Assembly (NCBI GenBank): GCA_017406985.1
Contig: JAFQXL010000004.1
Location: forward strand, 59,708-123,707
Source of the DNA: Candidatus Saccharimonadota bacterium
GTDB lineage: Bacteria; Patescibacteriota; Saccharimonadia; Saccharimonadales; Saccharimonadaceae
DNA: 64,000 bases
Direction: 5' to 3'
Shown piece after piece: positions 6,110 through 37,956 of this stretch. Below the pieces are notes generated by a model. That model saw only the letters and a list, made by a program, of their open reading frames with translations, ran no database searches and was not told where the DNA came from. The position numbers were made by a program, and so were the translations under genes. Each line of letters starts with the position of its first letter. The first letter of the stretch is position 1.

Positions 6110-8910
<2,801 letters not shown>

Positions 8911-8919
<9 letters not shown>

Positions 8920-8939
8920 AAATAGAAATTTAATATAAT
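8911..8939 (+). promoter_or_regulatory. Near-consensus sigma70 promoter with no downstream + strand ORF
   Basis: TTGACT(8911-8916)-17 nt-TATAAT(8934-8939). Confidence 0.65.
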
Positions 8940-8945
8940 ATAAGC

Positions 8946-9030
8946 ATAAAAGAGAAGCTTCTTCTAGGAAGAAAACCTCTCTTATAACGAGTTGTTTAAC
9001 TCACCGATCGTCTGATCGGTGAGTTTTTTC
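8946..9030 (+). ncRNA. Candidate ~85-nt antisense sRNA
   Basis: Lies between the promoter above and a 12-bp terminator hairpin (8998-9009/9014-9025 plus T-run). Confidence 0.45.
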
Positions 9031-9093
9031 GAAAGTTGCCTTGAATCTTATTAAGTTCCAAAGAAACGAAACGTCTATACTTCTTTTAGTCAT
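9001..9093 (-). CDS. Small ORF, 30 aa (MTKRSIDVSFLWNLIRFKATFEKTHRSDDR)
   Basis: Manual translation; SD GAAAGGAGG at 9102-9110; extended -10 TGcTATACT at 9244-9252 on the minus strand. Confidence 0.5.
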   Translation of the reverse strand: MTKRSIDVSFLWNLIRFKATFEKTHRSDDR

Positions 9094-9258
9094 ATAGAAT
9101 TCCTCCTTTCTAACGAACTCGAACTCTCGGATTACCTAGAACTTCGCTTCTTGATGTTATCTTGAAGAGCGGGTTGAATTCGTTGAGAGATGCCCGTCTG
9201 TATAGAATTCAAACCTTGCTCAAGTTAAACCCCTCGTTTTTTCAGTATAGCATATTTT

Positions 9259-11448
9259 TTAGTTTCCGGCGAGAGAGTCGAACTCTTCGAGTGAAGAGAT
9301 TAAGACGTCGCGCGGTTTATTCCCGTTTTGAGGGCCGATAACGCCGATTTCTTCGAGCCAAATCGCGAGTCCAGAGACGAAGCCGTGTCCTTTTCCGAGG
9401 TAAGTCTGGAGCGAGGCGGTCGAGAACTTACCTTTAGAAAGCGTAATCTCGACGGCTTTTCGAACGACCGGATCATTCGGATCATAGCGACGGCCGAGGT
9501 CGCCGATCGCGCCGCCGTCGGACGGGCCGAGACCTTTAATCTGAACGGCCTGAGAGATGACTTCGTCGTTATATTCCGGAGCGCGCTGTTCTCTTAAGAA
9601 GTTTGTTAGTTTGTCGATGTCGGCGTCAGGAGCGAAAGCGCCCTGGATTCGGCGAGGCTTTCCCATCATTTCGGTTGTCAGCATAAGCATATCACCCTTT
9701 CCGAGCAGTTTTTCGGCGCCGCCCATGTCGAGCATGATGCGTGAGTCGGTATTATTATTAACGGCGAAAGCAATCCGTCCAGGGACGTTCGCCTTGATTA
9801 GACCGGTAATAACTTTAACTTCTGGACGCTGTGTTGCGAGGACGAGGTGCATACCGGCGGCACGACCTTTCTGAGCGATACGGACGATTAGCTGTTCAAG
9901 GTCTTTCCCTGCCTGCATCATTAAATCCGCCATCTCGTCGATAATAATCACGATATAAGGCATCTTTGTTCCGTCTTCAACCTGTTCCTTCGACATTTTA
10001 GTGTTATAGTCTTCGATTTTCTTAACCTTTTGTTCTGCCATCTCGGTATAACGACGTTCCATCTCGTTTACTGCCCACTTCATAGCGGAGAGAGCTTTAT
10101 CGGTCGAGTTTATAATCGGGGTTAAGAGATGCGGAATCGCGTCATATTGAACCATTTCGACCTGTTTTGGATCGACGATAATTAACTTTAAATCGCTCGG
10201 TGCGTTCCTGTAAAGGAGCGAAGATATAAGAGTGTTTGTCATAACGGACTTACCAGAACCGGTAGTTCCGGCAATTAAGAGGTGCGGCATTTTCGCGAGG
10301 TTCGCGACGACAGAGTTACCGGAAATGTCTTTTCCGACAGCGAAAGTTAAAGCGTGATTATCTGGCTTGTTCCACTCTTTACTTTCTAGAATGGCGCGGA
10401 GAGTTACGTCTGCCGGACGGACGTTCGGGATTTCGACGCCGACGCTTCTAGTCCCCGGAATCGGAGCTTCGATACGAACTTTATCAACCGCGAGATTAAG
10501 CGCTAATTCCCTATCGCGCGCGGTAATCTTCGAGAGGTTAACGCCGGCAGGCGGTTTCATTGTATACTGGGTAACGCGCGGGCCGACATTCGCGCCTTCG
10601 ACTTCGACGTCGATTCCGAATTCGGCGAAGGTAGATTTAATGATATAAGCGTTTTGTTGAATATTTCCGCCGTCCGGAGGAGTCTGTTTCTTCGAGAGAA
10701 GCTCGGTCGAAGGCATTTTCCAGTTCGGATCGGAAACGGTCGTAAGAGAGCGCTCCGGCTCTGGAGCCTTTGTCTCTTCGGAAGGTTTCTTAATATTAAG
10801 TTTTCGGTTTTCTTTGTCTGCTTCGATAATCGACGGGGCGTTAATCTTGAGGTCTTTAAGCTTTCCGGTTCCGGCTTCGACATTTGCTTTCTTGGCGATT
10901 TTAGCGTTTTCGCGGTCTTCGCTTTGACGAGTTCCCCTAAAGAGATTTCCAATAAAGCGGAAAACGGAAGCAGGCGAAATCGACAGGATAAAAATCCCCG
11001 TAATAAAGATAAGAACGGCATAAAGGAAGAAAACTACGCCTTTATCGAGAATCTGTGTCGCGACGGAGTTTAGGCTTTCGCCGAGGATTCCGCCAGTCGG
11101 GTTCGGTTCGCCAATCGTCGGGACGCCGAAGATTCCGGCGAGCCAAGCAACCATAATAATGCTCGCAAACCAAGTCGAAAGAGGAAGCTGGTTCGTTTCG
11201 CTTCGGAAAATCATTACTGCAAGATAAACAAGCAAGACAGGGATAAAATAAGAAGCGTAGCCGATTAGATAAAGAGTTCCCTGATGGATATTATTAAGAA
11301 GAGTTCCTCCGCTTCCGAACCAAGTCATAACTAAAGTTACGGCGATGGCGAGAAGAAGAACCGCGCCAACCTGACGCCAGAAACCACCCGGAAGCTCATG
11401 TTCAGGAGCTACATCCCTTGTTTTACTTTTACGTTTTTTCCTAGCCAT
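9259..11448 (-). CDS. ftsK: FtsK/SpoIIIE DNA translocase
   Basis: N-terminal TMs; 'MPHLLIAGTTGSGKS', 'IIIDEMADLM', 'GMHLVLATQRP', gamma domain. Confidence 0.95.
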   Translation of the reverse strand: MARKKRKSKTRDVAPEHELPGGFWRQVGAVLLLAIAVTLVMTWFGSGGTLLNNIHQGTLYLIGYASYFIPVLLVYLAVMIFRSETNQLPLSTWFASIIMVAWLAGIFGVPTIGEPNPTGGILGESLNSVATQILDKGVVFFLYAVLIFITGIFILSISPASVFRFIGNLFRGTRQSEDRENAKIAKKANVEAGTGKLKDLKINAPSIIEADKENRKLNIKKPSEETKAPEPERSLTTVSDPNWKMPSTELLSKKQTPPDGGNIQQNAYIIKSTFAEFGIDVEVEGANVGPRVTQYTMKPPAGVNLSKITARDRELALNLAVDKVRIEAPIPGTRSVGVEIPNVRPADVTLRAILESKEWNKPDNHALTFAVGKDISGNSVVANLAKMPHLLIAGTTGSGKSVMTNTLISSLLYRNAPSDLKLIIVDPKQVEMVQYDAIPHLLTPIINSTDKALSAMKWAVNEMERRYTEMAEQKVKKIEDYNTKMSKEQVEDGTKMPYIVIIIDEMADLMMQAGKDLEQLIVRIAQKGRAAGMHLVLATQRPEVKVITGLIKANVPGRIAFAVNNNTDSRIMLDMGGAEKLLGKGDMLMLTTEMMGKPRRIQGAFAPDADIDKLTNFLREQRAPEYNDEVISQAVQIKGLGPSDGGAIGDLGRRYDPNDPVVRKAVEITLSKGKFSTASLQTYLGKGHGFVSGLAIWLEEIGVIGPQNGNKPRDVLISSLEEFDSLAGN

Positions 11449-37086: not shown

Positions 37087-37956
37087 TTATAGACTTTTAG
37101 GCGAAAGCCTTCCGTTGTCGATTTGATCAAGGTTCTTCAGCGACTTATAATAGCGAATCGCTTCTTTTGCAGCGAGAGTTTGCGCCTCTTGCTTCGAATG
37201 GCCGGAGCCTTCGCCCCGAACCGTCTTACCGACTTGAACAACAACAGTATAAAATCTATTATGATCTGGGCCTTCTTCGCTAACCGTGCGATAGACCGGA
37301 ATAACCATCTCAGTTTTCTGTGTTAGCTCTTGAAGATAAGACTTCGGATCGCGCCAAGATTCCTCTTCGACCATCTTTTCAGTCTTTGAGAGGATATATT
37401 TATAAATATGTCTTTTCGCGGCTTCATAACCCTGATCGACATAAATCGCGCCGGTAACCGCTTCAAAACAGTCCGCAACAATAGATTGATGGGAGCGCTC
37501 GCCGTTTTTTCCACTCTGTTCGCCTTTCGAGAGGCGAATTAAGTGGACATAGCCGATTTCTTCGCTAGCTGCGGCGATAGACTCCGTTCGGACTAAAGCC
37601 GAGCGCCAAGCGGTCATAATCCCCTCATGTTCGTTAAAATGACGGAAGATAAAATCAGAAGTCACGAGCTCTAAAATCGCGTCGCCGAGAAACTCGAGGC
37701 GTTCGTTATGTTCGATATTAACCTTACGATGTTCATTAACATAACTACGGTGAGTTAAAGCGGTAATAAAAAGGGTAATATCTCTAAACTCAAAACCGAG
37801 ATGTTCTTTTGCAAAATCTTGATATTCCTTGAGAGTCTCTTCAGAAAAAACCTCTTTCGGACGGTTGTCGTCTTTGGCGTCGCCTAAAACGTTAATCTGT
37901 TTTTTTATTCTCTCAATTGAGATTCCGAACTCCGCCGGATTTAAGCCTTCGTTCAT
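37087..37956 (-). CDS. rnc: Ribonuclease III
   Basis: 'HNERLEFLGDAIL', 'ADCFEA', dsRBD 'DPKSYLQE...GEGSGHSKQEA'. Confidence 0.95.
   Translation of the reverse strand: MNEGLNPAEFGISIERIKKQINVLGDAKDDNRPKEVFSEETLKEYQDFAKEHLGFEFRDITLFITALTHRSYVNEHRKVNIEHNERLEFLGDAILELVTSDFIFRHFNEHEGIMTAWRSALVRTESIAAASEEIGYVHLIRLSKGEQSGKNGERSHQSIVADCFEAVTGAIYVDQGYEAAKRHIYKYILSKTEKMVEEESWRDPKSYLQELTQKTEMVIPVYRTVSEEGPDHNRFYTVVVQVGKTVRGEGSGHSKQEAQTLAAKEAIRYYKSLKNLDQIDNGRLSPKSL

Follow-up and report, generated by a model that had tools for sequence, protein, structure and literature searches.

Candidate type I toxin–antitoxin-like modules pairing a cationic micropeptide mRNA with a 3'-overlapping antisense RNA in Saccharibacteria

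The locus among described type I systems

Long-distance pairing between the 5' and 3' ends closes the hok and AapA1 mRNAs, and translation of the hok mRNA is controlled by its folding. The par locus of pAD1 combines a convergent small-peptide mRNA and small RNA, which overlap in the terminator region, with a 5' structure that limits translation. In the type I toxin–antitoxin (TA) pair bsrG/SR4, the two genes converge and overlap at their 3' ends, and the antisense RNA acts on both decay and translation (PMC3834814); the 3'-overlapping type I systems of Bacillus subtilis are also treated in PMC3531473 and PMC5848175. The full-length AapA1 mRNA is folded shut and untranslated, and RNase III cleaves the duplex that it forms with the antisense RNA (PMC5416894). 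As a rule, type I toxins are hydrophobic peptides with a transmembrane (TM) α-helix, SymE being a named exception, and all identified type I systems came from Proteobacteria, Firmicutes and Tenericutes until one cyanobacterial case was added in 2025 (PMC12390103). Our full-text literature search returned no paper linking type I TA systems to Saccharibacteria or Patescibacteria. Here we describe a candidate module of this kind in a 64,000-nucleotide stretch of a Candidatus Saccharimonadota genome (contig JAFQXL010000004.1; the whole stretch is referred to as the window), in which a 30-codon open reading frame (ORF) on the minus strand converges with a predicted small antisense RNA (sRNA) gene on the plus strand.

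By analogy, the module would work like a 3'-overlapping type I TA system while falling outside every named family by sequence. As in bsrG/SR4, txpA/RatA and yonT/SR6, transcription is convergent with a 3' overlap, the predicted sRNA (8946–9030) lying over the last 10 codons and the 3' untranslated region (UTR) of the peptide mRNA; the antisense gene likewise has its own predicted promoter and terminator, the Shine–Dalgarno (SD) sequence appears partly sequestered and an RNase III route would be expected. Unlike those systems, with which neither Pfam nor NCBIfam reveals any sequence relationship, the window copy does not lie on a prophage, and the family peptides are cationic, 22–30 amino acids long and devoid of a TM helix, whereas the toxins of the three described pairs are hydrophobic and span 38–59 amino acids.

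The module shares with hok/sok and aapA1/IsoA1 an mRNA closed by a 5'–3' long-distance interaction (here predicted), a multi-copy chromosomal occurrence and the probable cleavage of the duplex by RNase III, and its 30-residue peptide has the length of AapA1. It differs from both in that their antisense RNAs cover the 5' UTR or the translation start, whereas here only the 3' end of the ORF and the 3' UTR are covered, and the apex of the first antisense hairpin has the same sense as a motif of the 5' UTR; moreover, hok and aapA1 encode membrane peptides, whereas the peptide described here has no TM span. Convergence of an mRNA for a small peptide with a small RNA is also found in par (Fst, RNA I/RNA II, Enterococcus faecalis), which, however, uses one shared bidirectional terminator and carries 5' direct repeats with complementarity near the start codon, whereas our locus has two distinct hairpins (8998–9025 and 8947–8986) and a 5'-UTR motif that is identical, not complementary, to the sRNA loop. 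We know of no 5'–3' lock with its 3' partner inside the antisense target in bsrG/SR4, txpA/RatA or yonT/SR6. The proposed mechanism can be viewed, by comparison with these systems, as bsrG/SR4-type convergent control combined with AapA1/hok-type mRNA folding.

On the evidence of sequence comparison, we regard the locus as very probably a real antisense-controlled micropeptide gene pair, and we lean slightly towards its being a true type I TA pair. Three hallmarks of type I systems bear on this reading: (i) a small gene (<60 amino acids) with its own translation signals, represented here by a 30-codon ORF that follows an SD and belongs to a family with a coding signature; (ii) a cis-encoded overlapping antisense gene, indicated by sequence signals whose position is conserved in ~36 loci; and (iii) an mRNA structure that restrains translation, which predicted folds, the long-range inverted repeat I1 and covariation in a short subfamily of the module all suggest.

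A conserved layout in a multi-copy family

Six-frame profile searches, seeded with the two peptides of the genome under study (G000) and then iterated, identified a family of ~36 loci in ~30 genomes of one family of gut Saccharibacteria, with 1–6 copies per genome. The first profile round returned small SD-preceded ORFs in genomes of the same genus (G007, G070 and G126), and the iterated profile added four copies in G338 as well as three in G234, three in G225 and two in G281, the last three genomes belonging to other genera of the same family. Of the 369 genomes searched in the genus, 31 (~8%) have matches at E ≤ 0.002, with at most six copies each. The window ORF scores 77 bits against the family profile (E = 7e-22), a match by construction, since the two G000 copies served to build the profile. 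The carriers are Candidatus Saccharibacteria and Nanosyncoccus metagenome-assembled genomes from sheep, roe deer and similar sources, which agrees with the assignment of the locus to a Candidate Phyla Radiation genome in the first-pass annotation of the window.

We scanned the layout of the antisense gene at every locus with enough flanking sequence, in two sets of 17 and 19 loci. An opposite-strand hairpin resembling an intrinsic terminator is located between −35 and +14 of the stop codon in all of them (17/17 and 19/19); its stems differ in nearly every copy, with the pairing always kept. An opposite-strand sigma-70-type promoter lies 10–70 nt past the stop codon in 16/17 and 19/19 loci, mostly as TTGACT-17-TAGAAT or TATAAT. 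Variants across these 35 of 36 loci read TTGACT/TTGCAA-17-TAGAAT/TATAAT, and the promoter of the one remaining locus is below threshold, with 8/12 matches by eye. In the short type of the module, the antisense promoter is found at +10 to +30 and would yield an sRNA of ~45–50 nt, whereas in the long type it is found at +51 to +69 and would yield an sRNA of ~85 nt with an extra 5' hairpin. Long-type members comprise the window copy and the second copy of the same genome (W1 and W2, respectively), G070, L099, L111, L115, G225, G281b and G234. On the mRNA side, most family members have a TGn-extended −10 located 52–56 nt (short type) or 97–159 nt (long type) before the start codon, and nearly all have an AAGGAGG-type SD.

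The predicted antisense gene is thereby conserved in position, not in sequence, and the C-terminal tail of the peptide is variable because the same DNA doubles as the stem of the antisense terminator. Recurrence of the same layout in ~36 loci and in the same-genome paralogue places the module beyond chance, unlike lone signals: the promoter scan alone remained at chance level (4 promoter-like sites per 2 kb versus 1.8 expected), and the terminator rule of the signal scan picked up neither plus-strand hairpin. The convergent 3'-overlap layout proposed in the first-pass annotation is therefore conserved across the family loci, and this family-wide layout supports its hedged description of the pair as type I TA-like or as an sRNA-regulated micropeptide.

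The second copy in the same genome (G000:C3:525486–525712; L021 1990–2230) is 71% identical to the window over positions 8908–9146 (BLASTN, 61 genomes, E = 1e-18), and a BLASTN search of the intergenic region against 60 relatives returned no match beyond this paralogue. The homology begins exactly at the plus-strand −35 element and stops ~55 nt before the start codon. Both the ATG and its SD (GGAAGGAGG) are retained, and the ORF (MVKTIEISLLWGLICLKHTSKKAYRHIGR) has an in-frame 3-nt indel with its stop codon at the same place. The antisense promoter reads TTTACT-17-TGaTATAAT, and the terminator hairpin (GCTTACCGAC...GCCGGTAAGC, followed by a T-run) has altered bases with the pairing kept by compensatory changes; the antisense RNA as a whole is 71% identical between the two copies. 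The second copy lacks the distal 5' UTR and adjoins tRNA-His/tRNA-Gly (L021 1708–1888, minus strand), and on its other side lies a truncated 61-amino-acid ORF (L021 2303–2488) resembling the C-terminal third of glutathione peroxidase. It may therefore be partly decayed, and its setting suggests a scar left by rearrangement or deletion. A link to tRNA genes, suggested by this copy and by the G007 locus, both of which sit beside tRNAs, was unsupported in the family, with 4 of ~40 loci near such a gene versus ~7 expected.

The three G234 copies (L047, L062 and L066) share one sequence from about −55 to the end of the stop codon, and their 3' antisense region and distal 5' UTR are wholly different, each with its own paired stems. 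This pattern suggests modular exchange or rapid diversification of sRNA–mRNA specificity. Many family copies lie within ~150 nt of draft contig ends (for example, G1110:C63:70–147, G234:C14:53–97, G948:C36:22–84 and G1124:C13:68–121), as expected because repeated elements break assemblies.

An order-wide profile search of 400 genomes yielded, outside this taxonomic family, only weak chance-like matches without an SD or the module layout, and a family-pattern scan of JGI metagenome contigs yielded no confirmed relatives. Weak profile matches at L024–L027, L029–L034, L036–L041, L045, L046, L050, L051, L053 and L054, together with a second match in G007, were rejected as chance or intragenic. In a genome of another family of the order (G875), L079 contains at ~1498–1545 a short frame, ELFCLITFKFYPKQN, that is similar to the G225/G281 peptides (…LFGLITVKFYPKKN…) and has neither start codon nor SD; it could be what remains of a decayed copy or a fortuitous resemblance.

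Signals and RNA folding at the window locus

The module occupies the 339-nt gap between a yrdC/sua5-like gene (plus strand, 8323–8919) and the convergent ftsK gene (minus strand, 9259–11448) (Table 1). The signals reported in the first-pass annotation, that is, the extended −10, SD, 30-amino-acid ORF and 3' hairpin with T-run on the minus strand, and the promoter followed by ~85 nt to a 12-bp terminator, antisense to the mRNA 3' end, on the plus strand, were all recovered at their reported coordinates. Its 5' UTR of ~150 nt holds as a long leader, the corrected length being ~144 nt. The assignment of the minus-strand promoter and leader is strengthened by the nearest long-type relatives, L111 and L115, which have an extended −10 ~150 nt upstream, and by the pairing of the predicted 5' end with 9001–8986 in I1. 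The plus-strand ~85-nt RNA has a folding energy of −30.6 kcal/mol (z = −4.3). The 3' hairpin of the mRNA, a counterpart of which is found in every long-type member, is the probable mRNA terminator and 3' protector. An Rfam search of both strands at E ≤ 10 returned sub-threshold chance matches only (top match ncr952, 23.5 bits versus a gathering score of 100).

Table 1. Features of the module in the window (arrows follow the direction of reading; MFE, minimum free energy)
Feature	Position	Strand	Basis or remark
Extended −10 TGcTATACT (TGCTATACT) of the peptide mRNA	9252→9244	−	Score 9.5 including TG extension; predicted start near 9237
5' arm of the long-distance 5'–3' pairing, AACGAGGGGTTTAACT, with the family G-rich 5'-end motif GGGGTTT	9238–9223	−	Inverted repeat I1; MFE fold
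5'-UTR hairpin GGTTTGAATTC...GAATTCAACCC	9171–9215	−	Inverted repeat I7; MFE fold; hairpin at equal position in long-type relatives
5'-UTR motif UUCUAGG	9141–9135	−	Complementary to apical CCUAGAA of the 3' hairpin; identical to antisense hairpin-1 apex
Shine–Dalgarno GAAAGGAGG	9110→9102	−	8 nt upstream of ATG at 9093
30-codon ORF MTKRSIDVSFLWNLIRFKATFEKTHRSDDR, candidate toxin/micropeptide	9093→9001	−	Sequence; 33-sequence family alignment
3' arm of the long-distance pairing, directly past the stop codon	9001–8986	−	I1; on the plus strand, it corresponds to the single-stranded antisense-RNA spacer
mRNA 3' hairpin, apical CCUAGAA 8968→8962, then UUUUAUG	8947–8986 (stem 8983→8950)	−	Inverted repeat I5; predicted folds
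Antisense-RNA promoter TTGACT-17-TATAAT	8911–8939	+	11/12 matches; −35 overlaps final codons of the yrdC-like gene
Antisense hairpin 1	8950–8983	+	Sequence; fold
Antisense intrinsic terminator, perfect 12-bp stem, GTCT loop, T6	8998–9009/9014–9025, T6 at 9024–9029	+	I3; −18 kcal/mol; within the last 10 codons of the ORF
Predicted cis-antisense sRNA, ~85 nt (hairpin 1, spacer, terminator)	8946–9030	+	Complementary along its entire length to the peptide mRNA (last 10 codons and 3' UTR)

The two arms of I1 are complementary at 14 of 16 positions and rank first among the long-range inverted repeats detected in the region; a pairing of this strength anywhere in the transcript occurred in 1 of 200 shuffles. 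The first arm starts at the predicted transcription start, 6–8 nt past the extended −10, and the second directly past the stop codon. For the short subfamily, RNAalifold applied to a plain MAFFT alignment predicts a 10-bp 5'–3' helix between the first transcript nucleotides and a 3' segment, in which 70 of 70 cells are paired and 5 of 10 positions show double (compensatory) changes. All one-sided changes in this helix give G-U wobbles in the mRNA, which indicates pairing at the RNA level rather than at the DNA level. In long-type relatives, the G-rich 5' end (GGGTTT) pairs just past the hairpin of the antisense terminator. RNAduplex z-scores for the 5'–3' pairing of single members are mostly not significant taken alone, and the case for this pairing therefore rests on its consistent position and on covariation. 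The SD is predicted to pair with codons 8–11 in the window copy, and RNAalifold likewise predicts pairing of the SD with core codons in the short subfamily.

The pair formed by UUCUAGG and CCUAGAA is conserved in W1, W2, G225, G281, L111 and L115, the 5'-UTR motif being located at −36 to −51 in the first four and in the proximal 5' UTR in the last two. It covaries in G070 (TTCCGAGTAG/TTACTCGGAG) and in G234 (CCTAGT/ACTAGG). Contact of the 5'-UTR motif with the apex of the 3' hairpin is a likely second docking contact in the folded message.

As the complement of the mRNA 3' region, the antisense RNA has the same sequences as both mRNA 5' elements: its spacer ACGAGUUGUUUAAC matches the mRNA 5' end ACGAGGGGUUUAAC, and the UUCUAGG at the apex of its hairpin 1 matches the 5'-UTR motif. 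It should therefore compete with them for the same 3' sites. Between the sRNA and the 5' UTR, we detected no complementarity beyond the palindromic CUAG. The multi-copy family, the covarying 5'–3' lock of the mRNA and this antisense copy of the mRNA 5' elements extend the first-pass annotation.

We propose that the minus strand would produce an mRNA of ~290 nt (~9237 to 8945) encoding the cationic 30-residue peptide and the plus strand an antisense RNA of ~85 nt (~8946 to 9030), transcribed from its own near-consensus promoter and ending within the final 10 codons of the ORF. The full-length mRNA would be stable and poorly translated, owing to the 5'–3' lock (9238–9223 with 9001–8986) and to occlusion of the SD by codons 8–11, with the UUCUAGG of the 5' UTR docked on the apex of the 3' hairpin. 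The antisense RNA would base-pair along the final 10 codons and the 3' UTR, displace the mRNA 5' end and form a duplex of ~85 bp, which RNase III would cut, so that peptide synthesis is prevented; upon loss of the sRNA, the peptide would be made. We advance only tentatively, as a rather doubtful extension of this scheme, that the antitoxin RNA mimics the mRNA 5' end and the 5'-UTR loop, competing with them for the two 3' docking sites and so unlocking the message for nucleases, and that the toxin is a soluble cationic micropeptide whose target is not the membrane, the whole forming a Saccharibacteria-specific class.

Elsewhere in the window, an RNase III gene is present at ~37384–37782 on the minus strand (PF14622, 127 bits). 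The yrdC-like gene has matches of 30–35% identity in other families of the order, and antisense within it is a promoter-like sequence, TTGACC-16-TATAAT (8498–8525, minus strand), with 11/12 matches. Synteny could not be traced via this gene, for which 0 of 18 same-genus genomes had a match at E ≤ 1e-20; it may be an accessory gene or a recent acquisition.

The peptide and alternative explanations

The family ORFs are 22–30 codons long and share the core E-I-x-L-L-F-G-L-I-K-I-K, with the degenerate consensus E-[IL]-x-[LF]-[LF]-[FW]-G-L-[ILF]-x-[IV]-[KR], behind which the tail is basic and variable (33-sequence alignment; MKKDLEISLLFGLIKIKKISSIRKKS is an example of a consensus member). Across 12 representatives, the mean pairwise identity of the core at codon positions 1, 2 and 3 is 0.56, 0.72 and 0.32, respectively, and the pooled pN/pS ratio is 0.43, with synonymous sites near saturation. 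A conserved Ser switches between TCN and AGY codons among family members. Together, these three observations constitute a coding signature beyond what RNA-structure constraint alone would impose, and they argue that the peptide is under purifying selection.

The peptides are cationic, with a net charge of +2 to +7, and their longest apolar run of 5–14 residues (5 in W1 and mostly 8 elsewhere) is too short for a membrane span; with a best 19-residue Kyte–Doolittle mean of ≤1.2, they lack a full TM helix, as the first-pass annotation had remarked. AlphaFold2 returned a single helix in two predictions, with moderate confidence (pLDDT 76–79), which is not apolar over a TM length. The alternating polar/apolar pattern around the conserved Gly, with a β hydrophobic moment exceeding the α moment, would suit a β-hairpin, a fold that neither AlphaFold2 prediction reproduced. 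Five family members had no match in Pfam or NCBIfam at E ≤ 10, a PDB sequence search returned no match, and an exact look-up of five peptides in a collection of 15 billion proteins found 0 of 5; gene callers miss the family peptides.

Several observations count against a functional TA pair at this locus. A hydrophobic segment of TM length, the usual hallmark of a type I toxin, is absent from the peptide. The window peptide is an outlier of its family, being the only one of 33 sequences with Asn in place of the conserved Gly, and the pN/pS ratio between W1 and W2 is ~1.1. No −35 element is recognisable in the minus-strand promoter, which would rely on its extended −10. The apical CCUAGAA of the window copy lies partly within a short inner stem, so that loop docking would need that stem to be opened. 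Finally, the module is flanked by housekeeping genes with no obvious mobile element, and a family-pattern scan of IMG/VR viral contigs found no confirmed relatives.

The best-surviving alternative, which we consider possible though unlikely, is an antisense-regulated, non-toxic micropeptide with a physiological role, for example in envelope, nucleic acid or ribosome binding, the sRNA only tuning its level. Purifying selection on a cationic peptide without a TM segment, predicted with moderate confidence as a single helix, is in keeping with such a role, and the RNA architecture would fit it equally well. The distribution of the family, however, speaks against it: occurrence is patchy, at ~8% of the genomes of the genus, copy number ranges from 1 to 6, and many copies lie at contig ends. 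In G234, moreover, the antisense part diverges fast between copies whereas the ORF stays identical, and tight locking of the mRNA typically marks selfish or toxic modules, not housekeeping small proteins.

It is improbable that the locus is a selfish cassette resembling a miniature inverted-repeat transposable element, in which the inverted repeats act as DNA, with the promoters and ORF as incidental or decaying features. Multiple copies, their frequent location at contig ends, the long-range inverted repeat I1 and the second copy, with its missing distal 5' part and its truncated neighbour gene, would all be explained in this way. Yet the one-sided changes of the 5'–3' helix, which invariably give G-U wobbles in the mRNA, point to RNA-level pairing, the codon-position signature and the Ser codon-family switches reflect selection on the peptide, the promoters and SD are kept in essentially every copy, there is no transposase and tRNA genes are not enriched nearby.

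An artefact, in which the plus-strand hairpins only terminate the yrdC-like gene, the promoter match is fortuitous and the ORF spurious, could draw on the location of the terminator 80 nt downstream of the yrdC-like stop codon and on the chance-level promoter scan, but is effectively refuted by the comparative data, as the predicted promoter–hairpin–ORF arrangement recurs at ~36 loci with unrelated flanks, including the second copy with its different upstream gene.

A conserved multi-copy family of antisense-controlled micropeptide pairs in epibiont genomes of ~0.7 Mb would extend type I-like systems to the Candidate Phyla Radiation. The peptide, cationic and without a TM helix, is atypical for a type I toxin and, if the TA interpretation is true, a non-membrane toxin of these ultra-small epibionts would add a new kind to the type I toxins. 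The covarying 5'–3' lock and the antisense duplication of mRNA 5' elements offer a directly testable RNA mechanism. Such modules could influence genome stability, phage defence or the relationship between epibiont and host in organisms that have very few regulators.

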